From a virus (Duplodnaviria > Heunggongvirae > Uroviricota > Caudoviricetes), in IMG/VR virus record IMGVR_UViG_3300028591_000125: a stretch of DNA of 64,000 nt. The stretch is one strand, 5' to 3'. The number at the start of each line of letters is the position of its first letter. The stretch's first letter is position 1. The position numbers were made by a program, and so were the translations under genes. A model generated the notes under the pieces. The model saw only the letters and a list, made by a program, of their open reading frames with translations. It ran no database searches and had not been told where the DNA came from. This document shows, one piece after another, positions 12,125 through 58,498 of the stretch.

Positions 12125-12166
12125 AACATATATAAGGATTAGAGGGAAAAAGAAACGGAAAGAAAT

Positions 12167-12520: not shown

Positions 12521-12536
12521 AACATATATAAGGAAA

Positions 12537-12770
12537 ACAAAAAGAAGAGACCAACTTAATGATCTCCTCTCTCACTAAAATATGCACAACACGCAAAGTA
12601 ACGTGTAGAATAATTTAAAAAGTTCACCTCATAAGCCAAGCACTCGGTAACTTGCGTCCTCTCACTCTGAAGATCCTAGTCTACATTACGTAATCTAGAA
12701 TCGACTTATGATGTATGTAATTAATATATGAATTTTGTGTCTCGGATTTTAAATGGTTTTCTTTTTACGT
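12537..12770 (-). ncRNA. candidate small RNA with own promoter and terminator
   Basis: Minus-strand promoter motif at 12755..12770 with a hairpin and T-run terminator at 12540..12570. There is no ORF and GC is elevated. Confidence 0.35.
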
Positions 12771-12781
12771 ATATAAGGATT

Positions 12782-13409: not shown

Positions 13410-13494
13410 ATATATATAAGGAAAATAAAAATACAGAAAATATGGTCTAAAATCCTTATATATGAGAAAAACATCTGATATATTTTAGTACCAG

Positions 13495-14136
13495 GTGTTT
13501 TATTTTATTCAAGATATGGAAATAACAAATATAAATAAAGTTAAATATAAAGACTTAATTGAAATTCTAAAGAAAGATAGAACAACAATAGAAAAGGTTA
13601 TATTACCATTGAAGAAAGTAGATCATCTTATTTTAGGTTGTGGTTATAAAATAATTGAAAAAACTATACAATCTAATACTAAGGGGGTTGAATATAGAGT
13701 CCGAGTAATGCAAACTAATGAGGGAGCTATAACTACTTTATACTCTATTTTCACAGATTACTTAGTTATATGGCCAGTAACTTATCTTTATGGTTATACA
13801 GAAGAACCTTATATAATATTAATAAAACTTCATGCGATTGATAGATATGCAGAGAGATATCTTAAAATAGAGGATAAAAATGAAAGTTTAAATAGATTCA
13901 TTGATATCTTCTGTTTATATAGAGATCCTTATTTGTTCAGAAAATCAGAAACTGACAAAGTAGAAAGTCTGATGTGTAGAATAAAAGATGGAGTTCTCTT
14001 GGGTTATATTTATCACGTTTCTCCAAAGATTCTTAGATTAAATACTTTTATAAGTGACGTTGAATTAGATGAAGCTAATAGAGATGATCAACTTAAAGTA
14101 AGAAAGAATTCTGACGCATGGAGAAGGGTACAGTAA
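13495..14136 (+). CDS. hypothetical protein
   Basis: 213 aa ORF. This is the first plus-strand gene after the strand switch, with a CCTTATATATG motif at 13455..13467. Confidence 0.5.
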   Translation: MFYFIQDMEITNINKVKYKDLIEILKKDRTTIEKVILPLKKVDHLILGCGYKIIEKTIQSNTKGVEYRVRVMQTNEGAITTLYSIFTDYLVIWPVTYLYGYTEEPYIILIKLHAIDRYAERYLKIEDKNESLNRFIDIFCLYRDPYLFRKSETDKVESLMCRIKDGVLLGYIYHVSPKILRLNTFISDVELDEANRDDQLKVRKNSDAWRRVQ

Positions 14137-18270: not shown

Positions 18271-20949
18271 CTATTTTTTAAATTTAACACAGACTTTTTC
18301 TTCCTTATCAAGATTTACGTCAACCTTGCTTTTTCCGCCCGTCGATTCTTCAAGTAGTTTATCACAAATAGGATCTTCAACCCATTTTGCAATACCTCTA
18401 CTTAAATCTCTAGCTCCATAATTCAGATCAAGCTCGGAGATAATTTTATCACGAACAGAATCAGAAACAGTTAAAGTAAATCCTTTTCCCTTTAATCTAT
18501 CTGCAAGTTTCTTAAGCTCAAGAACATAAATCTTTTTCATCTCTTCTTTGCCTAAGCTATTAAAGATTACTATTCCTGAAAAACGATTTATAACTTCAGG
18601 ACGGATTCTCTTCTTAATAGCTTTCATAACAATTTCTTTTGTCATAGCTTTCTTATCTTCAAGACCAAATCCAATTCCTTTTCCGTGAGCCTCTAATTCT
18701 CTAGTTCCATCGTTACTAGTGAATATAAAGATACAATCCTTAAAACTAACTTCTATACCATTACTAAGCGTTATAAATCCGGTTGTCAAGATATTAAGGA
18801 AGATAGTATTTAAGATCTCATCACACAACTTATCAGCCTCATCAACTAAGATTAATTGTTGTGGTCTTTCTCTTACTTTATCGAAAAGAGCCACTTCACC
18901 AAATCCTACATAACTCGGAGGTGCACCAATCAATTTAGTTACAGTATGAGGTTGACTGAGTTCTCCACAATCTATTCTTAACATAGCTTTCTCAGATCCA
19001 AAAATCGTCTTAGCTATTTCTTCAGCCAAATAAGTTTTTCCAGTTCCAGTACCTCCCGAAATATAGAGACTTGGTGGAATATTCTCATCACGAAGGCCTA
19101 AGAATTGTTTTGAAAGAAGTTTAGTTACTACCTCAATACACTCATCCTGACCAATAATACGCCCTTTCAAAGTTTCCGACATTGATCTGAGCTTATCTAT
19201 ATCCGGACTTAGTATTTTTTCTATCGGGACATTAACAAGCTCTGAAACTACCGTCGCTACATCTTCGGGCGTAACTTCGGTCTTTTTACGTGTAGCTTTT
19301 AATTCCTCTAATCTAGTTTCAAGTTCTTTCTGCTTGCTTCTTTCATCAGCTGCTCTATCATAATCTTCTTTTTCCAGATACTTGACTTTCTTCTCTTTAA
19401 CCTTCTCTATTTTTTCGACAAGTGCTTTTTCTCTAGATGAATCTATAGGCCGTTCAAGTTTAGCACGAGCACCAGAAACATCCATCAAATCAATAGCACG
19501 GTCTGGACTATTTCTATCGTACAAATATTTTTCAGAAAGTCTAACACAAGTCATTAGAATATCATCAGAATACTCAACTCCATGATACTCTGAATATTTC
19601 TCCTTAAGTCCTTTCAGTATTTCAAAAGTTTCTTCTTTACTAGGCTCTTCTATATAAACTTTCTGGAATCTTCTTTTAAGTGCACCATCCTTTTCTATAT
19701 ACTTCTTATATTCATCATAAGTAGTCATAGCAATAAGAGTAAGTTCACCTCTAGACAATCCAGGTTTAAGCATTTGAGATATATCAGAAGAACCCTCAGA
19801 AACAGCTGCATGAAATTCATCCACAACTAAAATTATGTTTCTATTATTAGTCGCTTCTTTACATACATCCTGAATTCTTTGCTCGAGTTGACCTCTATAC
19901 ATACATCCAGCTGTTAATGTTGTAACTGAAAGACTAATAATTTTCTTTCCCTTTAGTTGATTTGGAACATCGTCGTTTGAAATCTTTTGAGCTAGATATT
20001 CAATAAGAGCTGTTTTTCCTGCACCAGCCTTACCAATAACCATAGCATTGTTTTTCTTACGACAACAAAGTATTTCAATAATCTGATTTACTTCTTTTTC
20101 TCTTCCAATTACCTTATCGTATTTTCCATCTTTAGCGAGTTGAGTCATATTAATACCAAACTCATCTAAAGCGGGCGTTGAAGAATTAGGATCAGTTTTC
20201 TTAGTGTGTATATCTTTTACCTGACCAGCTTTTTCAAACTCCTCAGAATTATACTCACCACTTCCACTTCCTTCTTTTGAATCATTGTCGGAACTTGAAC
20301 CAGTTGGAAAACCTGGGAATCCTAAAGACTTTGCTAAATCTCCAAATCCCATACTTTCTAAGAACTTTCCGAAATTAGCCATATCATCATCGCTTATTTT
20401 TCCTTCATCAGCTTTAGATTCATTAACACCTAAAACTTGATGAGAAATAGTTTCAAATAAACTTGATACATAAGGCTGTTTACTAAATCCGTGAATAATA
20501 AGTTCCTTAACATAATCCAAGTTATCATCATCGTAAAGAATACTCAGAATAAAATCATCCAACACATTATCTTCAGGTTTAGTTAATAGCAATCCATAAG
20601 TTTTCAGACTACGAATTCTATTAAGATGCGAATCTAGATTCTTAGAAATTATTAAAGACTCATTAAATATGAGAGAGGATTCTATTTTATGTTCTTTCAT
20701 CGTCTTTCTACTTATTTTCTTAAGCTTAGAAAGAAGATCCTCTTGGTCCTCCTCAGACAACTTCTTCAATAATTTACAAGTAATTTCTCCTCCTTTTACT
20801 TTGAACTTATTATCTATACAGTACTTAATACTGTTATAAACAAAAGTCTCTGTGTAAATTTCCGAACAAAAATTAAGTTTAGATTCTTTTACAGAAATAT
20901 CAAAAACGTCTTTCAATGCTCCTGTAAGTTCAATTCTTGATTCACTCAT
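18271..20949 (-). CDS. ClpA/ClpB/ClpC-like double-AAA+ ATPase (chaperone/unfoldase)
   Basis: Two Walker-A regions are present (VIGKAGAGKTALIEYLA, ISGGTGTGKTYLAEEIA), with a Clp-type second-domain GAPPSYVGF-like segment. The ORF-track Met at 21009 lies inside the promoter motif, so I moved the start to the second Met (MSESRIEL) at 20949. Confidence 0.7.
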   Translation of the reverse strand: MSESRIELTGALKDVFDISVKESKLNFCSEIYTETFVYNSIKYCIDNKFKVKGGEITCKLLKKLSEEDQEDLLSKLKKISRKTMKEHKIESSLIFNESLIISKNLDSHLNRIRSLKTYGLLLTKPEDNVLDDFILSILYDDDNLDYVKELIIHGFSKQPYVSSLFETISHQVLGVNESKADEGKISDDDMANFGKFLESMGFGDLAKSLGFPGFPTGSSSDNDSKEGSGSGEYNSEEFEKAGQVKDIHTKKTDPNSSTPALDEFGINMTQLAKDGKYDKVIGREKEVNQIIEILCCRKKNNAMVIGKAGAGKTALIEYLAQKISNDDVPNQLKGKKIISLSVTTLTAGCMYRGQLEQRIQDVCKEATNNRNIILVVDEFHAAVSEGSSDISQMLKPGLSRGELTLIAMTTYDEYKKYIEKDGALKRRFQKVYIEEPSKEETFEILKGLKEKYSEYHGVEYSDDILMTCVRLSEKYLYDRNSPDRAIDLMDVSGARAKLERPIDSSREKALVEKIEKVKEKKVKYLEKEDYDRAADERSKQKELETRLEELKATRKKTEVTPEDVATVVSELVNVPIEKILSPDIDKLRSMSETLKGRIIGQDECIEVVTKLLSKQFLGLRDENIPPSLYISGGTGTGKTYLAEEIAKTIFGSEKAMLRIDCGELSQPHTVTKLIGAPPSYVGFGEVALFDKVRERPQQLILVDEADKLCDEILNTIFLNILTTGFITLSNGIEVSFKDCIFIFTSNDGTRELEAHGKGIGFGLEDKKAMTKEIVMKAIKKRIRPEVINRFSGIVIFNSLGKEEMKKIYVLELKKLADRLKGKGFTLTVSDSVRDKIISELDLNYGARDLSRGIAKWVEDPICDKLLEESTGGKSKVDVNLDKEEKVCVKFKK

Positions 20950-21041
20950 ATATTTTGTTTTTATTTTATTTTCTCTATGTATAAGGAAATTAGATCCTTC
21001 ACATAGCAAACTGGACTCTGAGTTTTAAATTCCTTATAAGT

Positions 21042-32858: not shown

Positions 32859-33935
32859 ATGTTTGATATAATAAGAAACGAAGGTAGATTGTTGTTTGAA
32901 GGAATAAGAGGAAGTCATTTACACGGACTTAATACTGAAACCTCTGATATAGATCACTCAGGAATTTTTATAGCTCCTGAAGATCAAATACTAGGACTTC
33001 GTGTTGGTTACGTTAGATGTGTGGAATCAAAAAGTAAGGACGATGTTTGGAATGAACTTGAAAAATTATTTGAAGAGTTAGCTAAGAGTAATGAGAGTGC
33101 ACTTGAAACTTTATATACTCCAAAAGAATTAACCTTACACTATGATCCTGTACTCGATCCTCTTTTCAATTACAGAGATAACCTAATTACTAAGAGGTGT
33201 TTTCATTCTTTTGGTAATTATGCTTTATCTCAAATTAAAAAAGCAAAGGGACTAAAGAAACTGATTAATATAGACCCTGAAGAAATGAAAGTCCGAAAAT
33301 CAATCCTTCATTTCTGCATCGTTCTTGAGGGCGTTAAAACTATCCCCCTAAATGAATGGTTAGAACGTGAGGGCCTTGATGAAAAAAATTGTGGCCTTAG
33401 TAAATGTAATAAGGGGGTTGAACTTTACGCCCTATATTACGATGCTACAGGAACTAAGGAATATCGGGGTTTATATGAAGAAGGAAGCACACAACTAAAA
33501 CTAACCGCTATACCTAAAGGAGAAGAGCCCGTTTGTACTTTCCAATTTAATATCGACGCTTTCTCTGGACATTGTAGGGATTATAAGAGATATTGGGAGT
33601 GGGTTGAAAAAAGAAATCAGGAAAGATATGAACTCGAAAAAGGATATAACTTCAATGCTAAGAATATAAGTAATGCAGTTCGTCTTTGTACTATGGCTAA
33701 AGAACTTGCAAACGGAGAGGGTATGATTTTAAATAGAGCAGGTAGAGATAAAGATTTCCTGCTTAGTATTAAAAATCATGAATGTACGTTTGATGAGATT
33801 ATTAAGTACATAGAAAACCTACGAACTGAAATGCTTGAGGCCTTTGAGAAATCTAAACTACCTGAAGAACCCGATAAAAAAGAACTCCAAAATATCCTAG
33901 TTAAAATAAGAAAGGAATTCTACTCAAAAAAGTAA
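32859..33935 (+). CDS. Pol-beta-superfamily nucleotidyltransferase
   Basis: 358 aa ORF. N-terminal GSHLHGLNTETSDIDHSGIF fits the hG[GS]x9-13DhD NTase signature. It has a helical C-terminal domain. Confidence 0.5.
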   Translation: MFDIIRNEGRLLFEGIRGSHLHGLNTETSDIDHSGIFIAPEDQILGLRVGYVRCVESKSKDDVWNELEKLFEELAKSNESALETLYTPKELTLHYDPVLDPLFNYRDNLITKRCFHSFGNYALSQIKKAKGLKKLINIDPEEMKVRKSILHFCIVLEGVKTIPLNEWLEREGLDEKNCGLSKCNKGVELYALYYDATGTKEYRGLYEEGSTQLKLTAIPKGEEPVCTFQFNIDAFSGHCRDYKRYWEWVEKRNQERYELEKGYNFNAKNISNAVRLCTMAKELANGEGMILNRAGRDKDFLLSIKNHECTFDEIIKYIENLRTEMLEAFEKSKLPEEPDKKELQNILVKIRKEFYSKK

Positions 33936-43220: not shown

Positions 43221-43630
43221 TTTAAACACTCTTTTAAACTAAATGCATCTTCTAGGTCCTTAAATACCTGATCTATTTCTTTCTTTGCCATCTCATCACC
43301 TCTTTTATAGACAAATGAAAACTGATCATGTGTACCGTCTCTATATTCATGGCATAGAAAACGACCTATACATAAATCATTCATACCTTCTATCTTAACA
43401 AAAGCGATTCCGGTATATTTAAACTTATATGTAAATGGAATTGAAATCCCATATACACTTTCCGTTTCGATATATGGTTGTTGCATTTTACTAGGATAAA
43501 TACAACCTTTAATATATCCTTTAGTACACATTATTTCATTAACCAGGGAACCTATGAATCTACATTTGAAACTAGCCTCTTTATAAAAATCAAATCTTTC
43601 TGCTATAAATAATGGTTGGTTTTTCTTCAT
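43214..43630 (-). CDS. hypothetical protein
   Basis: 138 aa ORF overlapping the upstream gene by ATGA. Confidence 0.5.
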   Translation of the reverse strand: MKKNQPLFIAERFDFYKEASFKCRFIGSLVNEIMCTKGYIKGCIYPSKMQQPYIETESVYGISIPFTYKFKYTGIAFVKIEGMNDLCIGRFLCHEYRDGTHDQFSFVYKRGDEMAKKEIDQVFKDLEDAFSLKECLKE

Positions 43631-45789
43631 ATTTCCCTTAGTTTCCTCTCATAGAATTCATAGCTATTTTCGAGTTTAGCTTGTTTCATTCTATCTTCAG
43701 TCAATGCGTAATCTCCTTTTCCTTCTGTTTCTTTTATAGTTTCGAGGTATTCAGGTTCTAGCATTTTACCTTTTTCGACTAGTTTAAGGGCCAGATTTTT
43801 AATTAGTTTTTTATTAGCTCCTATTATATTCTTAGTTTTATTCACAAGACCCTCATACCAGACTCTAATTTGTGTTTTTATTTCAGTATCATCGAATCCA
43901 TTAGGTATACCGTTATTATTATACAGAACGGCCGGATTGTGATAGTAATAAGGTCCAAAGAATCCGCCAGTATAGATATCATTCGTCATATCTATCATCG
44001 CCGTCCAAAGATCGCTGCCTGAACCAAGTAAAATTCTGTTATTATCTTGGAAAATAATTTCTTCAGCGCAATAACCGGCGATAGATACCATGACGTTTAT
44101 TTCAAGGTCGTATTTAGTATCAATTTCATCATACATTTCGGAATCATGGTATATAGTAATTCCGCCCTTATTAGAATCAACGCCAAGGATAGCATTAGGA
44201 GCTCTACCGGTTAAATAAGACATAACTACAGCGTGTCCAGCCTCATGAACGGAAGATGCGAATTTAAGTTTTCTATTATCCGGGTTTCTAAGTTTACCGA
44301 GTTCAAGTGGTATAATTTTCTCAGAGTCGCCGTAATATATAGTAACTGAATCCTTAGAATATCCAAGTTCAGGGTTTTTCACACCTACTTCCACATTTTC
44401 TTTCATATCTTTAATTAGGATATCAGAGAAAATAGGAGTAAATATAGTTCCGATAGTTGTAAATAGCGGACGTACACCTTGAGCGGGATAGACGCCTTCA
44501 GAGTAAATTAAATCTCTAAAGTCCTGAGTAACTGAGACTTTAATACCAGTAGTTTTAAAGAAGTCGTTGCAGTTCCTATCAATTTCTTTTTTAATAAGTT
44601 CTTCAAAATGGACTTTCTTAAGAGTAGGGTATTTAATTATATTGTTACCTATTCTACTAAGTTGTTCTGGTTTAAATCTTCTAAGTAATGAATCTTTAAT
44701 TTCAGATATAGATACTTTTCTAGTTTCGTCGTAGAATATATCAGCATCAATATCGGGGTTCAAGTCTTTAGAAGCGGGAAAAGCCTCATCCAAATTACCC
44801 AAGACGAATATAAGAGACTTTTTACAATCAATGAAATTAGGAGTATTATATTTAGTTCTACATGCTTTTAGAAACTCAGCAAATTCAATTACAGTTTTGA
44901 ATGAGTTAATTTCGTTGATATAGTCTAAGTATTTTTTATCAGGTTCAATTCCTTTAAGCCTGATAATAAGAGTCCTAAGAATATTTGGTTGTATTATAGG
45001 AAGTTCTCTATAAGGATCTTTTTCTTTTTTACTTTTCTTATCACCACCACTTTCTTCTGTATCTGGTTCATCAAGGTCATCTTCAAATCCTTCTTCTTCA
45101 ATTTCCCATGACTTAGGTTTATAATAGTTAGGGATACCACGGCCGTAATAGAAGAATCCGAGGTTTTCTAATATTTCCTTTACATCTTCTTTTTTAACCA
45201 CATTTCCATTAACAAGTCCCACAGATTCATGACCTTTTGTATATTCAAGGAAGTCATCTATAAAATTGTTAAGGGTATTATAGTCATAGGAAGCGTTATC
45301 CTCATTTAGATTAAGAATTCCAGTATCCATAAGAGTCCAAACAGGTCTTATAGCGGATTTTATTTCAATTTCACAACCAGACTCATCAATAGTTCTAGCA
45401 TATTGGAATTCATCAAAAACAAAAACTAAGTCTTCGGTTAATGTTTTACTTGCTGCAGAGGTTGGTGAGTTTCCGTATCTTGAAATAGAGAAAAATTCAT
45501 TTAAAGTTTCTACTATTGATTTTCCGTTATCACCAGCTTCTTTACCGCAATCGAAGGACATTGTTTTATTTTTTATGTCAAGTAGTTCGATTAGTCTATT
45601 TATTACACTAGTCTTTCCTGTTCCCGTCATACCCCAGAGCGATACTATAACCGGCCTTTGAATAATTTGAGGAGTCACATACCAAGGAGTGACAGCCGTA
45701 ATTATCTTATCAATAATCTCATCAAGGCCGACAAATTCGCTCTTTAATATCTGACGGGCATTTTCAAGTTTTTCTATTCTTTCTTTCAT
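43627..45789 (-). CDS. soluble FtsH-like protein: AAA+ ATPase fused to M41-type zinc metalloprotease domain
   Basis: 720 aa ORF. N-terminal Walker A SLWGMTGTGKTSVINRL. C-terminal HEAGHAVV zinc-binding motif followed by IAGYCAEEIIF and GSGSDLWTA. No TM helix. Confidence 0.65.
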   Translation of the reverse strand: MKERIEKLENARQILKSEFVGLDEIIDKIITAVTPWYVTPQIIQRPVIVSLWGMTGTGKTSVINRLIELLDIKNKTMSFDCGKEAGDNGKSIVETLNEFFSISRYGNSPTSAASKTLTEDLVFVFDEFQYARTIDESGCEIEIKSAIRPVWTLMDTGILNLNEDNASYDYNTLNNFIDDFLEYTKGHESVGLVNGNVVKKEDVKEILENLGFFYYGRGIPNYYKPKSWEIEEEGFEDDLDEPDTEESGGDKKSKKEKDPYRELPIIQPNILRTLIIRLKGIEPDKKYLDYINEINSFKTVIEFAEFLKACRTKYNTPNFIDCKKSLIFVLGNLDEAFPASKDLNPDIDADIFYDETRKVSISEIKDSLLRRFKPEQLSRIGNNIIKYPTLKKVHFEELIKKEIDRNCNDFFKTTGIKVSVTQDFRDLIYSEGVYPAQGVRPLFTTIGTIFTPIFSDILIKDMKENVEVGVKNPELGYSKDSVTIYYGDSEKIIPLELGKLRNPDNRKLKFASSVHEAGHAVVMSYLTGRAPNAILGVDSNKGGITIYHDSEMYDEIDTKYDLEINVMVSIAGYCAEEIIFQDNNRILLGSGSDLWTAMIDMTNDIYTGGFFGPYYYHNPAVLYNNNGIPNGFDDTEIKTQIRVWYEGLVNKTKNIIGANKKLIKNLALKLVEKGKMLEPEYLETIKETEGKGDYALTEDRMKQAKLENSYEFYERKLREI

Positions 45790-47583: not shown

Positions 47584-47781
47584 ATGCACAAGAAGCTCAA
47601 AAAATTGTTAAAAGAAGCCGAAGAAATGTTAGGAAAAGAGTTCACAGAAATTATTGAAGTGAATGAAAACAAAGTAATCGGAAAAAGGATCGATAAAAAA
47701 GGAAAAAGAAAATTTCAAACTACGGTGACATTAGATAAAAGTAAACACCAAAGAAATATTTCAATTGTCCCGATTAAATAA
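47584..47781 (+). CDS. hypothetical protein
   Basis: 65 aa ORF followed by a hairpin and T-run at 47790..47820. Confidence 0.45.
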   Translation: MHKKLKKLLKEAEEMLGKEFTEIIEVNENKVIGKRIDKKGKRKFQTTVTLDKSKHQRNISIVPIK

Positions 47782-48099
47782 AAAAAAATAGAGAGGAAAT
47801 TAAATCTTCTCTTTTTATTTTGAAAATAAAATGGGCTAATGCCCTATTAATAATTTTGTTATTTTTATGTCGAGTGGTACTCAGAGGGGGATGCTTTGGA
47901 AGAAGCTCCCTCCTTTCCCACAAATTGTTTTTTGTGTCGAGTGGTACTAAGAGTTTTTATAAGGCAACAACTATAACTCCGTTCCCACATGGTTTTTTAT
48001 GTTGTTTAAATTAAAATGTGTAAAAATAATCCTAAGCTATTGCATTACGCGGCTTAGGTTTTCTTTTTTGTTTCATATATAAGGCTTTCAGTACCTTTT

Positions 48100-48330
48100 C
48101 AGACGGCCTTATTTTTGTGTCAATTTTTAATGATTTTCTTCTATTTTATCTATTTAGCTGAGGCCGGTCGTGGCCAGAACTCAAATAAGAGCGAAATTTT
48201 ATAACCTACTCTTTTCTTTTAAACCATGATATCGTTTTTACGACTGGATATTTTTACTAAAAGAATTTTCGATAAACTCTGTAAATTTAAGTTCTGAGAA
48301 CCAATCTATATAACCGGCCTCAACCCTATG
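48100..48330 (-). ncRNA. candidate structured RNA (nested inverted repeats)
   Basis: GAGGCCGGT (48143..48151) pairs with ACCGGCCTC (48313..48321). CAGAACT (48160..48166) pairs with AGTTCTG (48291..48297). A promoter motif is immediately upstream at 48335..48350 and there is no ORF. Confidence 0.35.
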
Positions 48331-48403
48331 TATTTCTCTACATATATAAGGCTTTTAGTACTGTTTTGGGTGGAAAATAAAAGAGGCCTTTAAACCTCTT
48401 TCC

Positions 48404-48478
<75 letters not shown>

Positions 48479-48598
48479 CTATTCTAACATATATAAGGAT
48501 TTCAGTATATTCTAAAACAAAAAAAAAATAAACTAAAGGGACCACAATGGATCCCTAAAGTATAACAACATCAATAGATAATAACATATATAAGGATT

Positions 48599-48784
48599 TC
48601 AAACAGAACAACTGGTCTCTGTATCAAGTATCCAATATTCCTCACAATTATCAAAATCGTTCGCTGATAATTCTTTATTTAATCTTTCTACAGTTTTCTT
48701 TGCTTCCTCTAAGTTATCTGTAGAAATTCCAGTCTCTAGAATCATATCTCCCTTTACAATTTGATATTTATTCATAGTTTTCAT
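48599..48784 (-). CDS. hypothetical protein
   Basis: 61 aa ORF. Confidence 0.4.
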   Translation of the reverse strand: MKTMNKYQIVKGDMILETGISTDNLEEAKKTVERLNKELSANDFDNCEEYWILDTETSCSV

Positions 48785-49082: not shown

Positions 49083-50202
49083 TTATAGTCCAACCATAAG
49101 GGCAACCACTATTACTATTTAAAGGAATATCTTTAACTTTTCCTTTATTATATATTATACCATGAGTAGATACATTTTCTAACCAGTTAAGAGTGTTATG
49201 TTTATCCCATAACTGAGTTGTGTTTATGGTAATAGTAATATTGTTTAATGATGTACAACCATTGAACATACTACTATAACAATGATTAGCCAAAGTAGTA
49301 GCATGTAATTCAGGAGCTTCCGTTAATGAAGTACAACCTTCAAACATACTAAAATAACAATGATTAGCTAAAGTAGTAGCTGGTAATTGAGGAGCACTTT
49401 TTAATGATGTACAATTATCAAACATATACGCATAACAACTCTCAGCTAAAGTAGTAGCGGGTAATTCAGGAGCAGTTTCTAATGATGTACAATCATAAAA
49501 CATACCAGTATAACAACCCTTAGCTAATTTAGTAGCTGGTAATTGAGGAACACTTTTTAATGAAGTACAAATAGCAAACATCCGAGAATAACAACCCTTA
49601 GCCAAAGTAATTGCCAGTAATTGAGGGGCTTCTGTTAATGAAGTACAACCTTCAAACATACCATTATAACAATAATCAGCTAATGTAGTAGAAGGTAATT
49701 TAGGAGTAGTAGTTAATGAAGTACAATCCCGAAACATATTACTATAACAATACTCAGCTAAAGTAGTAGCAGGTAGTAGTTGTGGGGCTTTTATTAATGA
49801 AGTACAATTATAAAACATACCAGCATAACAACGATCAGTTAGAGTAGTAACAGGTAGTATTAAATTAGATGCATCAAGTAAATAACTAGTAGAGTAATAG
49901 CTATTCGCAAATAAACGATAAAAACAAGCACTATTACCATTAAATTTTGTCTCATCTCCCGTAAACTTATCTCCATATATCAGTGACATTATATTTCCAC
50001 TAACATTAAAATAAGTTTTACAATTTATACGTGAAACTGAGGTTGATCTTAAATACAGTTTTCTTTTATGAAATTTTAATTCTTGTTTATTTAATGCAAC
50101 CCAGTTCACTGTATCAAAGGAATATTCTATATTCTTTCCAATTATTTCTAGTATATTAATTTGTTTAAAAGCTAAATTCTCTATACAAAAATAATTTTTC
50201 AT
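49069..50202 (-). CDS. DUF285-type (MFxxCxSL) leucine-rich-repeat protein
   Basis: 377 aa ORF with about eight tandem 24-aa repeats of the form LPATTLA..CY..MF..CTSL..AP. Confidence 0.6.
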   Translation of the reverse strand: MKNYFCIENLAFKQINILEIIGKNIEYSFDTVNWVALNKQELKFHKRKLYLRSTSVSRINCKTYFNVSGNIMSLIYGDKFTGDETKFNGNSACFYRLFANSYYSTSYLLDASNLILPVTTLTDRCYAGMFYNCTSLIKAPQLLPATTLAEYCYSNMFRDCTSLTTTPKLPSTTLADYCYNGMFEGCTSLTEAPQLLAITLAKGCYSRMFAICTSLKSVPQLPATKLAKGCYTGMFYDCTSLETAPELPATTLAESCYAYMFDNCTSLKSAPQLPATTLANHCYFSMFEGCTSLTEAPELHATTLANHCYSSMFNGCTSLNNITITINTTQLWDKHNTLNWLENVSTHGIIYNKGKVKDIPLNSNSGCPYGWTIKEID

Positions 50203-50443: not shown

Positions 50444-50534
50444 ATTATTTATATTTTAAAGGTTAATTACATTTATAAGGATTTCTCGGCTTCTAAGGTG
50501 CAAAAAAAATAAGATAGAATTTAATCTATCTTAG

Positions 50535-50619
50535 TGGACAGGGAAGGACTTGAACCTCCAGAGCCGTTAAGGCACCTGATTTACAGTCAGGCCCGCTACC
50601 AATTACGGTATACCTATCC
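50535..50619 (-). tRNA. tRNA-Tyr (GUA), long variable arm (bacterial type)
   Basis: Reverse complement has acceptor GGATAGG/CCTGTCC and anticodon stem CCTGA/TCAGG with loop CTGTAAA, a 17-nt variable arm and T-loop TTCAAGT. The D-arm is atypical. Confidence 0.65.
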
Positions 50620-50644
50620 ATCATATTTATTATTTCATATTTTG

Positions 50645-50720
50645 CGGCCTTTCTTGGATTCGAACCAAGGACACCTTGATTAACAGTCAAGTGCTCTAAA
50701 ACCAACTGAGCTAAAAGGCC
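50645..50720 (-). tRNA. tRNA-Asn (GUU)
   Basis: Reverse complement: acceptor GGCCTTT/AAAGGCC, anticodon stem CTTGA/TCAAG with loop CTGTTAA, T-loop TTCGAAT. Confidence 0.75.
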
Positions 50721-50727
50721 AAATTTG

Positions 50728-50802
50728 TGGTCCTTGAGGGACTTGGACCCCCGACCCTCGCATTATGAGTGCGGTGCTCTAACCAAACTGAGCTAAAGGA
50801 CC
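50728..50802 (-). tRNA. tRNA-Met/Ile2 (CAU), elongator-type
   Basis: Reverse complement: acceptor GGTCCTT/AAGGACC, anticodon loop CTCATAA. The T-loop TCCAAGT deviates slightly from consensus. Confidence 0.6.
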
Positions 50803-50865
50803 TCGAAGTGCAAATACAGAGAAGGAGATTAAGCGAAGAAAAATTCTGTATAAGCACCTCTTTTG

Positions 50866-50946
50866 TACTTCCGGTGGGATTCGAACCCACAATGCTTTCG
50901 CACTGCATCCTAAGTGCAGCCTCTATACCAATTCGAGTACGGAAGC
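50866..50946 (-). tRNA. tRNA-Leu (UAG), type II
   Basis: Reverse complement: acceptor GCTTCCG/CGGAAGT, 3-bp D-stem, anticodon stem CTGCA/TGCAG with loop CTTAGGA, 12-nt variable arm, T-loop TTCGAAT. Confidence 0.7.
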
Positions 50947-50952
50947 GTTTTG

Positions 50953-51026
50953 AGCAGAAGATGGGATTCGAACCCACGAGATCCTGCTTGGAAGGCAGGT
51001 GCACTAGGCCTCTATGCGACTTCTGC
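50953..51026 (-). tRNA. tRNA-Gly (UCC)
   Basis: Reverse complement: acceptor GCAGAAG/CTTCTGC, anticodon stem CCTGC/GCAGG with loop CTTCCAA. Confidence 0.75.
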
Positions 51027-51042
51027 TTAATTCTTGTTTTTG

Positions 51043-51127
51043 CGGAGAGGGAGGGATTCGAACCCCCGGACCCGTGAAGGTCGGTGCTTTTCAAGAGCAC
51101 TGCCATAAACCACTCGGCCACCTCTCC
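51043..51127 (-). tRNA. tRNA-Ser (UGA), type II
   Basis: Reverse complement: acceptor GGAGAGG/CCTCTCC, anticodon stem GTGCT/AGCAC with loop CTTGAAA, long variable arm. Confidence 0.75.
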
Positions 51128-51135
51128 AAATTTTG

Positions 51136-51210
51136 TAGCCGGTAGGGGATTCGAACCCCTGATTTTGAGAATGAAAATCTCACGTCCTAGGCCAACTAGA
51201 CGAACCGGCC
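51136..51210 (-). tRNA. tRNA-Glu (UUC)
   Basis: Reverse complement: acceptor GGCCGGT/ACCGGCT, anticodon stem TGAGA/TCTCA with loop TTTTCAT, T-loop TTCGAAT. Confidence 0.7.
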
Positions 51211-51607
51211 AATTATTATTATTCACTAATTCTAAGAAATTAGTTTTCATTTTCACAACTATAAGGAATTTAAGGGATTTCAAGTGCAAAATAAAAGGGA
51301 ACATTTAAGCTTCCTCTTACCAAACACATTAATATTAAATCATTGACATATATAAGGATTTGAGATGGATAAAAAAATACTACCCAAATTTAATCGGATA
51401 GTATTTTCTCAACACATTAAATCTTATAATTATGACATATATAAGGAATTCAAGGGATAAAAAAAAGAGAGGACCCGTTAAGATCCTCCCCATGCAGAAA
51501 CAGTAACTTATTACACATATAAGGAATTCAAGGGAAATAAAAAGAAGGACCTAAAATTAGATCCTCCCTTTCTTAAAAACTGTAACTTATGGACATATAT
51601 AAGGATT

Positions 51608-52666
51608 TCAAAGCTTTCCAGATATAATTGTACTAGTTATTAAGTCCACTATATTTTCTAGGTCGCTTTTCTTTACGATCTCATTACTACTATGCATACT
51701 TAAGAGACCGAAACTAAGAAGACCACATTCACAATCACCTGCAAAGTCCTGGAATGATTTAGTATTAGTTCCTCCCGCTCTAGTAGTATAAGTTTTAGCG
51801 GGGATTTCATTTACCCTAGCTTGTTCTCTAAAAAGTGTACATAATCTTTCACTTTTTTCAGGACCGTAAGCAATCAAAGCCCCATCTCCCAAGTTTATAT
51901 CTAGATCTTTAAACTCGCTTCCACACAATTCAGTATCGGCAAAGGTACAATCAATGTCTATACTAATATCTGGGTTTATGTTTCTAGCCATTCTTTTAGC
52001 GCCATTTAAACCCGTCTCTTCTTGTGTTGCTGCGCCGAAATAGATGTCATAGTTTTTTGCGTCGTATCTCATTCCGGCCAATTTTTCGAGGACTTTAGCA
52101 ACGATCCATACACCACCTTTATCATCTAGTCCTGTTCCTCTTATATATCCGTTTCCAAAATTAGTCTCGATTTCTGGCCGGTATATTATCAAGGCCCCAG
52201 GAAACACACCGAATTCCTCAGCTTGTTTTTTGTCTTTCGCTCCTATATTAATTCGAAAGTCTAACCAATCCCCAAGCTTTTTTCTATCGGTGTCTAAATG
52301 AAGGGCCTGTTTTTGTACGACGCCTGGAATTCTTTTATCACCGGCGCATACTATAACATTTCCAGATACCAAAGACTTCAAACAGATTCCGGCCGACTGA
52401 GAAAACATTAAAGTTCCCTTATCCGTTATCTTAGTTACTCTTCCGCAAACTGTATCGATATGTGCTGAAATTAGGATCTTAGTTTTGTTTTCACCTTCTC
52501 CACTATATTTCCAGACTGAGTTACCTATTTTGTCTGTATAATAATGTTGAAGTGAGATCATAGGGTTTTTCGCTTGATCCTCCATAAACTGATCCCAAAC
52601 ATTAATAGCATCTCCTTCTTTACTGCTAGGAGAAACAGCCAAACAAAGATCTTCTAATAATTTCAT
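51608..52666 (-). CDS. M42-family (FrvX/YpdE-like) metallo-aminopeptidase-like protein
   Basis: 352 aa ORF. The N-terminus LLEDLCLAVSPSSKEGD...ILISAHIDTV is M42/M20-like as I recall the family. Confidence 0.5.
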   Translation of the reverse strand: MKLLEDLCLAVSPSSKEGDAINVWDQFMEDQAKNPMISLQHYYTDKIGNSVWKYSGEGENKTKILISAHIDTVCGRVTKITDKGTLMFSQSAGICLKSLVSGNVIVCAGDKRIPGVVQKQALHLDTDRKKLGDWLDFRINIGAKDKKQAEEFGVFPGALIIYRPEIETNFGNGYIRGTGLDDKGGVWIVAKVLEKLAGMRYDAKNYDIYFGAATQEETGLNGAKRMARNINPDISIDIDCTFADTELCGSEFKDLDINLGDGALIAYGPEKSERLCTLFREQARVNEIPAKTYTTRAGGTNTKSFQDFAGDCECGLLSFGLLSMHSSNEIVKKSDLENIVDLITSTIISGKL

Positions 52667-53184: not shown

Positions 53185-54831
53185 ATGAGTGAATTTGAAA
53201 ATTTAGGAAAGCAAGATGAAATTAAATTGCTTAAATTCCCAGAGTGTATTCGAGCTAGAATAGGTATGTATTTAGGGGGCACTGAGTCTACCGATACATT
53301 ACTTAGAGAGATTGTCGATAATTCTGTGGATGAGTGTTACGTAGCTGCTAATCAGATTATAATTGATCGAGATATGAATGACTATATTCTAGTAGCAGAT
53401 AATGGTAGAGGTTTAAATATTGAATACTCTAAAGAACTACGTGATGGACAACCTGTAGTACAAGCAGATCTATCTATTTCAGAACTTCATTCAGGTTCTA
53501 AGTTTGTAGATAATAAACAAGCTACCGTTGGGATGAATGGGATAGGCTCTTCTGCGGTAAATGCGGTTTCCCAGAATTACATATTACTTTCTAGAATCAC
53601 TCCAAATAATTTTGATAAATCTACTAAAGAAGTATACGATTTATGGAATTCAGCTGGTCCTCGTAGTAAAAAAGATCTATTTTATATTGTATGGTATAAA
53701 AAGGGTTATAAATATTACGAAGGTGCTCTAAAGAAGGCTGATATAGAAAAATTGGTGTTTACGGAAGGAAAGAAAAAACGCGGAGCAACGTGGAAAGAAT
53801 TACCTTCCGGGATGTCAACGATTGTATTATTTCAGCCTGATTCCGATATTTTTGATAAGTCTGCATTAAAACCAGAATTACCAATAAAGAATTTACAGTA
53901 TTTTCTACTTATACAAGAAAAGTTTTATAAGAAGAAAGTTACTATAGATCTTGAAGGTACTGTTTTTACTAGTGCAGATACAACAACTTATCAATTTGAA
54001 TTCACAAAGAGATTAATACCAGAAGATACTAGCTTAAATGAACAGCTTGATCTTTATATAACGTTTGAAGCTGATCCTGAGTTAAATCCAAAAGTATATA
54101 CAGGTTCAGTTAATTCTTTGAATGTAGACTCTGGAGTTCATATTAGTTGGGCAGAGAGTTGTTTTATGGAGGCACTGAAAGCTGAATTTGGAATTAAACA
54201 CAAATATCTTACAAATGGATTAAAGATGTGTGTTGTAATTTTAGCAAGTGAGGCTGTATATAATTCTCAAACTAAAGAGAAATTAAAAGGATTAGCAAAA
54301 GTAAAACAATCTGACTTTGCACCACTGATTAAAGAGTTTCAGAGAATATTCAGAAAAAATCTAGAATATTGGAGTGAGCATGTAAATAGATTAAATTACT
54401 TAGCTGACTCTATGAAACATCTTGGTGCTGCAGAGAAAGCCCAGAAAATAATGGACGATGCTGCAGGTCGTGGTATGTATAGATCAAAAGCTGATCTAGT
54501 TGATGGTTTTAGTGATGCAACAGCTGGTCCTGATGATAGATGGAATTGTTCTATTTTTCTCACAGAGGGGGCATCAGCCGCAGGCGGCTTAAAGGCTGCA
54601 AGAAAAACAACCAAGTATGATGCAGTTATGCCACTACGAGGAAAAGTTAAAAATGTTTGCAATGATAATGCAAACCAGATGATGGACAATAAAGAATTTT
54701 ATACTATATTTAAAGTTATAGGACTTGGTATAGATATTAATAATGTCACATCAGGTTGTGAAACACCAGAGCAAGCATATGAAATGATAAAACAAAAAAC
54801 AAGATTTGGCAAAATAATTATAGCAACGGAT
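53185..54831 (+). CDS. type II DNA topoisomerase large (GyrB-like ATPase/TOPRIM) subunit, exon 1 of 3 (T4 gp39/gp60-like)
   Basis: GHKL ATPase N-terminus followed by the TOPRIM region EGASAAGG...KIIIATD. The reading frame runs into an in-frame stop 23 codons after the conserved D (KQKLSENIEIYSENPIVAENSR, stop). Confidence 0.75.
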
Positions 54832-55142
54832 AAACAAAAGTTGTCCGAGAATATAGAAATATATTCTGAGAATCCCATTGTTGCGGAAAACTCTCGTTAG
54901 GCTAAAAGTACAGTAAAGTGTAATAAGTTTTTAGATAGAGACAATTCGCTTAATTATAAAATTTTATAATTGACAACGACTATCCAGAAATGGAGTAGAG
55001 TAATAAGTCTTTTATGATTACTCGAAAGATGGGACCCCTAACGTAAAGACGAGGGTGATGATATAGTCTTGACACGCTCAGAGATGAGGTGAGATCTTAA
55101 CTGATCTATATTAAGAGTAGGCGACTTAATATAAAAAATTCG
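54832..55142 (+). mobile_element. group I intron 1 (311 nt, no ORF) in topoisomerase gene
   Basis: Exon ends in U and the intron ends in G. Candidate IGS GUCCGA at intron +11 pairs with exon ACGGAU. Exon junction is IIIATD|ADEDG. In-frame stops are at 54898 and 55128. Confidence 0.65.
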
Positions 55143-55356: not shown

Positions 55357-56964
55357 TAACGGCATAGCCCCGTTACATAGTAATATGTAAATGAAAATTC
55401 CGTTAAAAGCTGGGAACTCCTGTTAGGTTAAGAGTACAATAAAGTGTAACAATCTCTTAAATAGGGACAATCAGCAGTTATATAGCAATAAAATAAATAA
55501 AGATTATGATTAGAAATGATGTAAAATTATATTTACAGGAGAATAATTTAAATATTGATGACATATTTCTAAAACACAGAGATACTATTGATCCTCCAAA
55601 TTATAGGGTTGGTAGAATCTTTAGAGATAATGTCGAATCAATCTTTGTATTAAATGAAGTAAATGGTCTTATTATGGATTATTTCTATGATGATGTTCCA
55701 GAAATTTTAGAATTTGATATAAGTAATTATAATAATTCTCTTGTAATTAAAGATGGTAATATAGAATCGGGAAAATATTTTATTAGTAGAGATGGTAAAT
55801 TAAAATCTATATATACTAATAAATATTTAACAATTCAATCAAATGAACTATATCCGATTTATAATATTAAATTAATAAATTCAAAAAATAGATTAGGACA
55901 TAGTAAGAGGTTACAAATTCATAGAATAGTAGCTTCCGTGTTCGTTCCTAATTTCAATCCAAAAGATAGAACTTTAGTTGATCATATTAATAGAGATAAG
56001 AATGATTACTCAATAACAAATCTTCGATGGGTTACCCAAAAAGAAAATGCAAATAATTCTCCAAAAAAGAGTTTTATAAAGAATAGGCAATATGTATCCT
56101 ATAAAGATAAAGAACTTACTATAAAAGTAGGTACATACTCTGACGAGGATTTATTAAATCATCCTAGATATAATAGAGGTGTTATATTAGATTCTCTGTA
56201 TAGCAGCAATTATCACTATGGTCTATATTGGAAAATAGTTGATTTAAATTTATTAAATTATTTATCATCTATTGGAAAAACGTTTGAAGATATAGATGAT
56301 AGTTTATGGGTTAATACTAGATTACCAGGTGTTATGGCTCATCCTTTTGGAATTTTAAAAATAACCACTCAAAAGAAAAGTCATAATACAACATATATAA
56401 CGTGTGGTTATGAAAGACATGAAAAATATAAATATCTTACAGTTAGTATCCAAGGAACTAATTATCTTGTTCATAGAATAATAGCAGAAGCTTTTATAAA
56501 TAAAAATAAAGAAATAAAATTTCCATATGAAGTGGATCATATTTCTACAATTCCTACAGACAATAGAGTTGAAAATCTTAAAATATGTACTCACTTAGAA
56601 AATGTTAATAATCCGAGTACAAAATTAAAATTATCTACACCTGTAATTGCTGAAGGAAAAGTATTTAATTCTATCTCAGATTGTGCTGATTATTATAAAG
56701 TAGCAAGATCGACTATAGTTAATTGGATAAGAAAAGGTAAAGATGGTTTTAGTTTTAAAAATTAAAAATAAAAATTGCTATATAACTTCAACGACTATCC
56801 AGAAATGGAGTAGGGTAATAAGTCTTTAATGATTACTCGAAAAGCGGAAAATCTATGATTTAAATTATAGATTATAGATTAAGATATAGTCTGCTCTCAT
56901 GGGAAATCATGAGGAGAGAAATCTCATGTTAAGAATTAAAAGACGACTTAACATAAACATAAGG
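55357..56964 (+). mobile_element. group I intron 2 (1608 nt) carrying an HNH homing endonuclease ORF
   Basis: The exon ends at U in AAAGGGU and the intron ends at G. Candidate IGS GCCC at +11. Its 5' and 3' core segments are homologous to intron 1. Confidence 0.65.
55506..56765 (+). CDS. intron-encoded HNH homing endonuclease (tandem HNH_3/AP2-like modules)
   Basis: 419 aa ORF. Two copies of the HNH core: VDHINRDKNDYSITNLRWVTQKENANN and VDHISTIPTDNRVENLKICTHLENVNN. It sits inside intron 2. Confidence 0.7.
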   Translation: MIRNDVKLYLQENNLNIDDIFLKHRDTIDPPNYRVGRIFRDNVESIFVLNEVNGLIMDYFYDDVPEILEFDISNYNNSLVIKDGNIESGKYFISRDGKLKSIYTNKYLTIQSNELYPIYNIKLINSKNRLGHSKRLQIHRIVASVFVPNFNPKDRTLVDHINRDKNDYSITNLRWVTQKENANNSPKKSFIKNRQYVSYKDKELTIKVGTYSDEDLLNHPRYNRGVILDSLYSSNYHYGLYWKIVDLNLLNYLSSIGKTFEDIDDSLWVNTRLPGVMAHPFGILKITTQKKSHNTTYITCGYERHEKYKYLTVSIQGTNYLVHRIIAEAFINKNKEIKFPYEVDHISTIPTDNRVENLKICTHLENVNNPSTKLKLSTPVIAEGKVFNSISDCADYYKVARSTIVNWIRKGKDGFSFKN

Positions 56965-57149
56965 TAGGTTCATTAAATCGTGATGATGTTTATAACGCGT
57001 TTTATGATCCAAGCAAACGTCGACTATTCCAAGTTACGACTGATGGAATGGATTTTGCTATGAAACTGGTAGAAGATATTGATGCCAGAAAAGAATTATT
57101 ATATGATAAAAATATTTTAAGTAATCCTTATAATTTTAAAGATCTTTGA
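56965..57149 (+). CDS. topoisomerase II large subunit, exon 3
   Basis: GSLNRDDVYNAFYDPSKRRLFQVTTDGMDFAMKLVEDIDARKEL matches the GyrB C-terminal [28 protein letters not shown]. Exon sum is 2046 nt, 681 aa. Stop TGA is at 57147. Confidence 0.65.
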
Positions 57150-57151
57150 TT

Positions 57152-58498
57152 ATGGGAAGAAAAAAGAAAGAATGTGTTGAATTACCATTAGCAACACCTG
57201 AATTATTATATAAACCTGTTGGACAAATAGCTGAAGAGTGTTATACATTCTACGGTGCTTATGTAAATAATTTTAGAGCAATCGCAAATGTAGCTGATGG
57301 AATGAAGGTTTCTTATAAAAGATTAGTATGGGCAGCTTTACAATACCCAAAAGGAAAAGATGTACCAACTATGAACTTAGTTTCATCATTATCTCGTTGG
57401 CATCCACATAACACGTCGGCTTGTGAAGACCTGAATGCACAATTAGTAAAATCTGGTGTATTTTCTGGTTCCGGATTTTTTGGAAATAAACAAATTGATG
57501 GTGTAGATTGTCCACACGCAGCTACTAGGTATACTAAGAATAGATTATCAGATTTGTATTGGGATATTATAGGAGATCTAGTAAAAGAAGTTCCTATGGT
57601 AGAATCCCCTCAAGGTGAAATGGAGCCAATTAATATACCGCTTCCATTACCACTTTGTTTATATCTGAAATCTTTGGTAACCGGTCTTGGAGTAGGAGTT
57701 ATGTGTATATATCCTAACTTCTCACCAAAATCTTTATATCAAGCTTATATACACGATAATCCTGATTTGCTTGAACCTAATATGAACATTTTTATAGATA
57801 AAGCAAATTCAGAGTTAAGAAGATTATGGGAAACTGGTAAAGGTAGAGTTATATACTCTTACAAAATATCCAGATCAATGAGCCATGATGGTAAAAGTGA
57901 AGGTATCTTATTTGAAGGTGATACTGGAATTTTTACACCGAGATTAGGAAAATTTGATAAGCTAGTCAGTGAAGGAAAAATTTATATAGAAGACCTTACT
58001 GATGAGAATGGACCAAAGCTTTTCGTGGGTAGAGTTCCTGGCGCAAAAGGTATAACAGTAGAGGATATAGAAGGAATAGCAAGAAAAGTTTGTTATGATT
58101 CTACTACATATAACCTCAATGTAACCAATGGAGAAACTTGTTTTAGAATTCCCCTAAAAGACTGGTTAGATTATACTTACAAAAATTACATAGAACTAAT
58201 TACAAAAGTCAATCAAAAGCGTATAGAAAAATGTAAGTTTAATATATCAGTTTTAGAAGCTTTGCCTGTAATTGCTGATTATGTTCTCAATAAAAATCCT
58301 AAAGCTGATGATAAAGAAATTCAGAAAGTTTTAGGGTATAGTGAAGAAGTAATTAGTGTAGTTATGTCCAAGCCTATTTCCTATTTACGTAAGAATAAAG
58401 ATACGAGTGATAGGATAAAGAAGCTTAAAGATGAATTGAAGGAGCTTAAGAGGTTTGATCCTGTTAAGTATACCGAAGAAATAATAAATAAACTTTGA
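57152..58498 (+). CDS. type II DNA topoisomerase medium (GyrA-like, T4 gp52-like) subunit
   Basis: 449 aa ORF. Its length matches T4 gp52 and it follows the large-subunit gene directly, as in T4-like phages. Start ATG at 57152 overlaps the upstream stop (TGATTATG). The ORF-track start at 57146 is a TTG. Confidence 0.7.
   Translation: MGRKKKECVELPLATPELLYKPVGQIAEECYTFYGAYVNNFRAIANVADGMKVSYKRLVWAALQYPKGKDVPTMNLVSSLSRWHPHNTSACEDLNAQLVKSGVFSGSGFFGNKQIDGVDCPHAATRYTKNRLSDLYWDIIGDLVKEVPMVESPQGEMEPINIPLPLPLCLYLKSLVTGLGVGVMCIYPNFSPKSLYQAYIHDNPDLLEPNMNIFIDKANSELRRLWETGKGRVIYSYKISRSMSHDGKSEGILFEGDTGIFTPRLGKFDKLVSEGKIYIEDLTDENGPKLFVGRVPGAKGITVEDIEGIARKVCYDSTTYNLNVTNGETCFRIPLKDWLDYTYKNYIELITKVNQKRIEKCKFNISVLEALPVIADYVLNKNPKADDKEIQKVLGYSEEVISVVMSKPISYLRKNKDTSDRIKKLKDELKELKRFDPVKYTEEIINKL

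Follow-up and report, generated by a model that had tools for sequence, protein, structure and literature searches.

The 64,000-nt stretch analysed here (the window), part of a 69-kb metagenomic contig from an uncultivated virus of the Caudoviricetes (IMG/VR record IMGVR_UViG_3300028591_000125), carries on its minus strand a tandem array of four gene-less units, each running from a promoter motif through a hairpin to a T-run, that extends from the end of an M42-family aminopeptidase gene to an operon of seven tRNA genes. The array is best explained, with a probability of roughly 55%, as a row of payload-less, partly duplicated terminator-promoter modules in a zone of cassette turnover between the aminopeptidase gene and the tRNA operon. 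This reading draws on the anatomy of the array, the recurrence of the same module throughout the genome, the conservation of the motif and of the flanks, and the turnover of the interior among relatives, all of which were observed directly.

In the direction of transcription, the M42-family gene (352 aa; 51608-52666, minus strand; Pfam PF05343, 5.6e-54) ends inside the first module, as its TGA stop codon (51608-51610) is embedded in TTTGAAAT-CCTTATATATGT, within TTTGAAAT, the upstream half of promoter 1. The core of this promoter, an exact copy of the motif CCTTATATATGT, lies at 51593-51604 (motif scan and sequence reading), and after a 20-nt spacer comes terminator 1 (51539-51572; terminator scan), a hairpin, GAAAGGGAGGATCT-AATT-TTAGGTCCTTCTTTTT, followed by ATTT and folding at -18.1 kcal/mol (z -3.7). 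It is predicted to end the M42 transcript as well as a unit 1 RNA of about 57 nt. Promoter 2, CCTTATATGTGT (51513-51524; motif scan), has one mismatch and sits 16 nt past the T-run of terminator 1; its terminator (51466-51491; terminator scan), GGGGAGGATCT-TAAC-GGGTCCTCTCT followed by TTTTTTTT, folds at -15.6 kcal/mol (z -2.9). The motif scan placed exact copies of CCTTATATATGT at 51435-51446 (promoter 3) and 51346-51357 (promoter 4). Terminator 3 (51370-51411) is an 18-bp hairpin (GAGAAAATACTATCC...GGGTAGTATTTTTTT) leading into a T-run (-20.2 kcal/mol, z -5.8), and terminator 4 (51290-51321), with the hairpin GGTAAGAGGAAGC-TTAAAT-GTTCCCTTTTATTTT, is weaker (-11.5 kcal/mol, z -1.6) and possibly leaky. 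All of these elements are on the minus strand.

An earlier account of this DNA, made from the letters alone and called here the sequence-only reading, had described four minus-strand promoter motifs, each followed by a hairpin and T-run, with no open reading frame (ORF) in between. The four motifs are present within about 10 nt of the positions it gave, and both hairpins it quoted are the ones reported by the terminator scan (51572-51539 and 51491-51466), those of units 3 and 4 being found by folding. Each unit thus has the G+C-containing hairpin and U-run of an intrinsic (Rho-independent) terminator, recognised by the scan in units 1 and 2 and by folding in unit 3 (strong) and unit 4 (weak), so that three of the four putative terminators are strong. 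Motif starts are spaced 80, 78, and 89 nt apart, 21-28 nt of unique sequence separates each promoter from its hairpin, and each terminator sits 16-27 nt upstream of the next promoter, a fused layout that recurs at most gene boundaries of the genome. By an arithmetic estimate, about 0.08 motif copies would be expected by chance in 280 nt of one strand, against the four observed. Because the array is base-for-base identical in two independent assemblies, it is not an assembly artefact. A CRISPR-like array was considered and rejected, as the repeat is the promoter motif found at gene starts genome-wide and the spacers hold terminators.

As for coding content, no credible ORF lies in the units, although the array is overlapped by two mechanical ORFs of 30 aa or more, one of 37 aa at 51380-51493 on the minus strand and one of 31 aa at 51365-51460 on the plus strand. 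Both span terminator/promoter boundaries and neither matches a PHROG family; the 31-aa frame is annotated as a gene in one public assembly. ATG codons within the motifs open micro-ORFs of 2-22 aa, and the peptides show no conservation from unit to unit.

The count of four is right for the empty units, but a fifth unit, with a variant promoter and a leader, heads the tRNA operon itself. This promoter 5, CCTTATAGTTGT (51255-51266; motif scan), is followed by a 44-nt leader (51211-51254) with an AT-only hairpin at 51225-51244 and no T-run (sequence reading and folding), which abuts tRNA-Glu directly; promoter and leader are both kept in the close relative L143, described below. The operon (50534-51210; ARAGORN and Rfam) holds closely packed genes for tRNA-Glu, -Ser, -Gly, -Leu, -Met, -Asn, and -Tyr and closes with a terminator at 50504-50531 (terminator analysis), all on the minus strand. 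A sigma-70-like site (TTGTGA, 18 nt, TAGAAT; 9/12) lies in the operon leader at 51229-51258 (minus strand) and is also kept in L143; such sites are no commoner here than in shuffled sequences.

The motif is well supported as a promoter of the phage's own, distinct from sigma-70 promoters, so that the label given by the sequence-only reading can be kept, with the kind specified as a phage-specific motif. The window has 16 exact copies of CCTTATATATGT, and at up to two mismatches it has 59, compared with 14.3 ± 3.8 in shuffled sequences. The strand of the motif tracks that of the local genes, and back-to-back pairs occupy all three divergent gene junctions (13410/13454, 45815/45847, and 53067/53118). 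In 13 of the 36 copies with at most one mismatch, an ORF has its ATG in the interval from 4 nt ahead of the motif end to 1 nt past it, typically as CCTTATATATGTtATG. Many ATGs lie 0-2 nt after the motif, and genes starting 1 nt past the motif in this form include those at 12126, 12522, 14163, 26788, 45847, 49040, 50204, and 53067. The identical motif stands 7-14 nt upstream of single tRNA-Gly and tRNA-Met genes in relatives and 8 nt upstream of tRNA-Met at 48478 in the window, and because it also precedes single tRNA genes it is not a translation signal. Even relatives with no more than 59-69% identity in the M42 peptidase have the motif unaltered. From the many ATGs at this place, we infer a transcription start no more than about 3 nt from the 3′ end of the motif, which implies that leaderless or near-leaderless mRNAs are probably a main mode of expression. 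Genes of the window that do have leaders lack a Shine-Dalgarno sequence.

A sigma-70 promoter scan found no site at any motif copy and 14 sites region-wide, with 20 expected. The Bacteroidota -33/-7 geometry was examined by eye and set aside: although TATATATG looks like TAnnTTTG, a TTTG at 19-21 nt upstream is missing. The 20 window ORFs scanned included no gene for an RNA polymerase or sigma factor. Literature searches returned neither the motif in a phage context nor a paper combining megaphage, promoter, and leaderless.

The array is made of parts that recur across the genome. In 20 of the 36 motif copies in the window, a hairpin and T-run end 4-31 nt upstream of the motif, so terminator and promoter appear to form one composite module that punctuates the genome into short transcription units, and the array consists of four such modules in a row without a payload. 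When motif copies were tallied in the window and at related loci, about 25 of roughly 100 led into a terminator before any ORF. Roughly half of these are isolated units with another promoter next, as in the array; the other half are leader-type units with a promoter-less ORF next, found at 13454 (plus strand) in the window, at 2372 and 7036 in L008, at 1236 in L010, and at 4977 in L015 (numbers with L denote loci of related contigs). At each of these places (13454-13500 in the window), a terminator-like hairpin comes immediately after the promoter motif and the promoter-less ORF lies beyond it. An ORF-less unit of 235 nt (12534-12768, minus strand) begins with a promoter motif at 12767-12778 and closes with a strong terminator; its fold z is only -2.0.

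The leader-type units suggest that attenuation or antitermination control may operate in this phage clade. Applied to the array, this would make the terminators regulatory attenuators, at which an antitermination factor or modified RNA polymerase would permit read-through, and once this happened the stacked promoters would take the tRNA operon from silent to highly expressed. Read-through must occur somewhere in the clade, because ORFs without a promoter of their own follow such terminators; it also fits that the weakest of the terminators is number 4, which stands nearest the tRNA operon, and that promoter 5 departs from the consensus. However, terminators 1-3 are followed by a full promoter rather than a gene, so three of the four units would regulate nothing unless antitermination were processive across all of them, and L143 has a single unit only. 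The unit leaders share no conserved box: the sequence TTACCTWRAGA, seen in unit leaders of relatives (L004 5631-5660, L005 7060-7090, L008 7048-7075, L015 at about 4950, and L046 on the minus strand at the second motif), is not enriched in the window, with 12 matches and 11.4 expected. No antiterminator gene was identified in the scanned part of the window. For the array itself, regulated attenuation is therefore considered quite unlikely.

Comparison with relatives indicates that the content of the interval turns over while its borders persist. In L013, the M42 gene is 93% identical to that of the window in amino acids, 94% in nucleotides, and 89% at third codon positions, and homology runs through the M42 end and the promoter motif and breaks abruptly at the motif end. 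Beyond the break, L013 has a different short hairpin, a 110-aa ORFan without a homologue in the window, and a terminator, and this ORFan cassette sits between the M42-stop promoter and the first hairpin unit of the type called family A below. Three empty units follow in the same type order as in the window, two with a GGATCT...AGGTCC hairpin and one with ATGTGTT and an AAAAyTACT hairpin, but the matched unit bodies are only 59-71% identical to those of the window, far below the neutral expectation of about 89%. The other close relative, L143, is a stretch of 599 nt found via a spurious ORF spanning tRNAs. Its tRNA-Glu is 100% and its leader 93% identical to the window, variant promoter 5 is kept, and homology ends at the upstream edge of the promoter 5 module. 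Directly upstream of promoter 5 it has a single family-A unit; units 3 and 4 are absent, and the stretch aligned to unit 4 is 49% identical.

Within the window, units 1 and 2 are 79% identical (z about 9.6) and are paralogues. Together with units b and c of L013 and the L143 unit they make up family A, with local-alignment z of 6-15. In the more distant L004, L005, and L008, the corresponding position holds one promoter-to-terminator unit, which comes immediately downstream of M42 in L005 and L008, whereas in L004 an additional 94-aa gene intervenes. Beyond this unit lie promoter-less small genes (p50/p141, absent from the window) and then single-tRNA cassettes. Homology of unit 3 to the post-M42 unit of these three loci looked suggestive by eye (a common GTAGTATTT arm), but z is only about 2-2.7 and none is claimed. 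The flanking genes and adjacent promoter modules are stable, and the content between them turns over by insertion, deletion, and duplication faster than by point substitution.

In its general form, then, the cassette turnover proposed by the sequence-only reading is borne out by the ORFan cassette of L013, the single unit of L143, and unit bodies that have diverged beyond neutral sites. Further relatives were sought with little return: IMG/VR gave no additional useful ones, either when scanned with the tRNA leader, tRNA-Glu, and the hairpin-promoter pattern or in M42-based locus searches. Tandem-motif matches in JGI data were mostly satellites and eukaryotic arrays of C2H2 zinc fingers, as CCTTATAAATGT encodes PYKC, and only L046, L047, and L116 resemble relatives in motif context and G+C content.

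The more specific proposal, that the units are footprints of lost tRNA genes, is not supported. It would make them shells of former single-tRNA cassettes from which the tRNA was precisely deleted, and it finds precedent in relatives whose tRNA-Gly and tRNA-Met genes each sit alone in such a cassette downstream of M42, as well as in one such cassette of the window (48381-48498); the promoter-hairpin gap of 21-28 nt is also about the size of a tRNA leader plus trailer. But no tRNA or tRNA pseudogene was found in 51211-51610 with ARAGORN at default and relaxed settings or with Rfam at E up to 5, and alignment of the units with the tRNA-Gly cassettes of relatives shows homology in the promoter alone. 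In the closest relative, L013, the extra payload is a protein ORFan, and there is no apparent mechanism for precise tRNA excision. Because distant relatives carry single tRNAs in promoter-to-terminator cassettes, the cassette logic appears right and tRNA loss retains some chance, albeit a very small one.

The window's own filled cassette belongs to a second minus-strand series at 48070-48600, where the sequence-only reading had seen similar units, including one of roughly 50 nt and one carrying tRNA-fMet; sequence reading and folding confirm it. Unit a (48537-48595; scan and folding) has a promoter motif at 48584-48595, overlapping the stop of a 61-aa ORF, and a hairpin, AGGGATCC-ATTG-TGGTCCCT (48537-48556), with a T-run; its hairpin core is the same as that of units 1 and 2 of the array. 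Unit b, the filled cassette (48381-48498; ARAGORN and sequence reading), comprises a promoter (48487-48498), tRNA-Met(CAT) (48404-48478), and a terminator (48381-48400). Unit c (48085-48351) has a promoter at 48340-48351 and then a 257-nt ORF-less stretch that folds at -58.6 kcal/mol (z -4.1). This stretch (48085-48339, minus strand), adjoining the tRNA-fMet cassette, has a long-range closing helix (GAGGCCGGU...ACCGGCCUC) and no Rfam match and is a candidate structured non-coding RNA. Unit d (48031-48084; folding and sequence reading) has the promoter CCTTATATATGA (48073-48084) and a hairpin, CCTAAGC...GCTTAGG (48031-48058), followed by ATTATTTTT. Two copies of GAGTACCACTCGACAyAAAAA, 67 nt apart at 47862-47953, lie nearby in a zone where plus- and minus-strand transcription converge (47780-48020).

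The sequence-only reading had also suggested that the units yield tiny RNAs, and short RNAs of about 50-70 nt are indeed their expected transcriptional output. It is fairly unlikely that these RNAs are functional, although the units could be genes for small hairpin RNAs that titrate a host or phage RNA-binding protein or nuclease, or act with tRNAs, with the function residing in the hairpin and not in a pairing seed. Because the promoters are near consensus (three of the four exact, one with a single mismatch) and the terminators mostly strong, with that of unit 4 weaker, a high output of discrete RNAs would be expected. Family A occurs in three genomes, where compensatory changes at 6 of 11 pairs preserve its hairpin and a G.U pair is conserved, and the start ATAAGTTA is common to unit 1, unit 2, and the L143 unit. 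Moreover, the GGATC...GGTCC hairpin is found in the window only in units 1 and 2 and in the unit just upstream of the tRNA-fMet cassette, all beside tRNA genes. A restriction-site significance of the GGATC stem was rejected, as GATC is not avoided (observed/expected 0.84).

Against a function for the RNAs, the stem conservation is weak evidence because any working terminator would show it. The 5′ single-stranded parts are unconserved between the window and L013 despite M42 genes that are 94% identical, and the number and kind of units vary among close relatives. No antisense target was found for the unit RNAs in the 64-kb window, the longest matches of 12-15 nt being no better than in shuffled controls. 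No Rfam 15 family was found in the array, where the best sub-threshold matches were L20_leader (29 bits vs. 58.7) and sbrA (23 vs. 45); only tRNAs pass the gathering score. The suggestion thus holds for the RNAs as expected products and does not extend to a sequence-specific function: four abundant short hairpin RNAs that are by-products and lack function are most likely.

Finally, the repeats might act as DNA, for example as iterons, a transcription-activated replication origin, or a packaging or recombination site. The spacing of 78-89 nt is regular, and the array lies less than about 2 kb from a strand-switch point, near the minimum of cumulative GC skew. However, what repeats here is the motif found ahead of genes and tRNAs throughout the genome and in relatives, GC skew here tracks gene orientation, and the array is variable or absent in relatives, leaving a role at the DNA level scarcely credible.

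If the array is instead a set of payload-less modules in a turnover zone, each unit would start at the promoter core CCTTATATATGT and end at a canonical intrinsic terminator 55-70 nt later. Terminator 1 would close the M42 mRNA, and the conserved variant promoter 5 with its leader would drive the seven tRNAs. Near-identical promoter modules would recombine with one another, and payloads, whether ORFan genes or tRNAs, would be gained, lost, and duplicated because of this, so that the interval between M42 and the tRNA operon would be a turnover zone with empty, tandemly duplicated units. One consequence would be a tRNA operon strongly insulated from upstream transcription.

Several points weigh against this explanation. 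Recombination between two flanking modules removes the payload together with its terminator and leaves one module, not an empty unit, so the empty units need either duplication of a [spacer-terminator-promoter] segment or separate loss of payloads, both of which are assumed. The close relatives compared are only two, both short contigs. The consensus promoters, the compensated family-A hairpins in three genomes, and the restriction of GGATC...GGTCC to sites beside tRNAs hint at selection beyond that expected of junk. Likewise, the quarter or so of motifs that run into a terminator before a gene, half of them before a promoter-less gene, looks like regulated attenuation and not debris. Taken furthest, such points would make the units a designed gene-control or counter-defence layer in an uncharacterised clade of gut megaphages, with a non-sigma-70 promoter firing into promoter-proximal terminators and hairpin RNAs or antitermination switches controlling tRNA supply and other genes; this proposal is tentative and, on balance, unlikely.

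No close deposited phage was found for the window: only its tRNAs gave DNA matches to known phages, and its topoisomerase II reaches no more than about 28% identity. M42 homologues with 59-69% identity occur on contigs of up to 416 kb, and the same motif is used at every locus examined. Tandem copies of it near a topoisomerase gene also occur on nine IMG/VR contigs of 71-370 kb, seven of them 200-370 kb. The phage belongs to a clade of very large uncultivated phages. Its ten tRNA genes are accompanied by genes for an RlaP-type RNA-repair nucleotidyltransferase (32859-33935, plus strand; Pfam 5e-13), a ClpB-like disaggregase (18271-21009, minus strand), and an FtsH-like protease (43627-45789, minus strand). 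A 419-aa HNH-endonuclease ORF (55506-56765, plus strand) separates the genes for the two subunits of topoisomerase II (53185-54900 and 57146-58498) and could represent the insertion of a homing endonuclease. A BspA-type leucine-rich-repeat (LRR) gene of 377 aa contains seven tandem 78-nt (26-aa) repeats (49156-49853), and an identical copy of this LRR protein is encoded on a 112-kb JGI contig; its orthologue P0112 was not located, and L144 is without the upstream flank. One top LRR-protein match comes from a bacterium labelled Paludibacteraceae, which, with the lack of Shine-Dalgarno sequences in leadered genes, weakly suggests a Bacteroidota host.

Among known systems, the closest are the promoter-early stem-loops (PeSLs) of T4-type phages, repeated composite promoter/stem-loop cassettes of hyperplastic regions (Arbiol et al. 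2010, PMC2839356; Comeau et al. 2014, PMC4122927). PeSLs serve as both start and stop signals of transcription, and ORFans are gained or deleted when the elements recombine with one another (PMC2839356, PMC4122927). Formation of excised mini-circles is a further PeSL trait. The elements described here share with PeSLs a short composite of strong promoter and stem-loop terminator repeated many times, with the stable terminating stem-loop fused to the promoter within about 100 bp (4-31 nt upstream in 20 of 36 copies). In both, stop codons of upstream genes fall inside the element, stems contain G-T pairs, elements are concentrated in variable regions beside ORFans, and the terminator is thought to insulate neighbouring units. 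Indels or replacements between close relatives are likewise bounded by the elements, here in L013 and L143, the only two relatives available for this comparison.

PeSLs have a sigma-70-type early promoter with -35 and -10 boxes and an AT-rich upstream region, whereas the contiguous 12-nt CCTTATATATGT, when tested, lacked -35/-10 geometry and gives predicted leaderless mRNAs without a Shine-Dalgarno sequence. The PeSL terminator overlaps the -35 or -10 box, whereas here the terminator with its T-run lies upstream of the promoter core, and modules form a tandem array only 20-30 nt apart. The phage is also not T4-like, judged by DNA matches confined to tRNAs and the amino-acid identity of about 28% in topoisomerase II, with no systematic search made for T4 core genes. 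The elements would work like PeSLs but are not members of that family.

The composite terminator-promoter cassette logic of T4-type phages seems to be paralleled in this unrelated clade of very large phages, where it is built on a different and strictly conserved 12-nt promoter that would give leaderless mRNAs. In these genomes the motif can readily be used to annotate transcription units. The array marks a hot spot of cassette gain and loss beside tRNA genes, and is itself most likely a by-product of genome plasticity.

Two other systems bear on the alternatives discussed above. The PR'-tR' unit of phage lambda, source of the 6S RNA, is a single gene-less unit of about 194 nt with a defined Q-loading site and a Q gene, and the genes downstream depend on read-through. 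The array resembles it in having gene-less promoter-to-terminator units with predicted short terminated RNAs directly upstream of an operon, but here four units of 55-70 nt are stacked, neither a Q-like factor in the scanned part of the window nor a loading site was identified, and the operon has its own conserved variant promoter. The Q-type layout of a promoter-proximal terminator followed by a promoter-less ORF is seen elsewhere in the clade, whereas array units 1-3 lead to promoters; if such promoter-proximal terminators are regulated, they would point to an unrecognised antitermination system in megaphages. In the tRNA region of phage T4, the small stable RNAs species 1 and 2 (rnaC/rnaD) are conserved and processed from the tRNA precursor transcript, and the tRNA region of phage T5 has multiple promoters and multiple terminators. 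The likeness lies in short non-tRNA RNAs of unknown function beside phage tRNA genes and in tRNA regions split into many small transcription units; unlike the T4 RNAs, each unit of the array has a promoter and terminator to itself, and the unit sequences are unconserved between close relatives. Lambda PR'-tR' with Q would accordingly be the closest model if the terminators act as attenuators, and the small RNAs of the T4 tRNA region the closest if the unit RNAs have a function.

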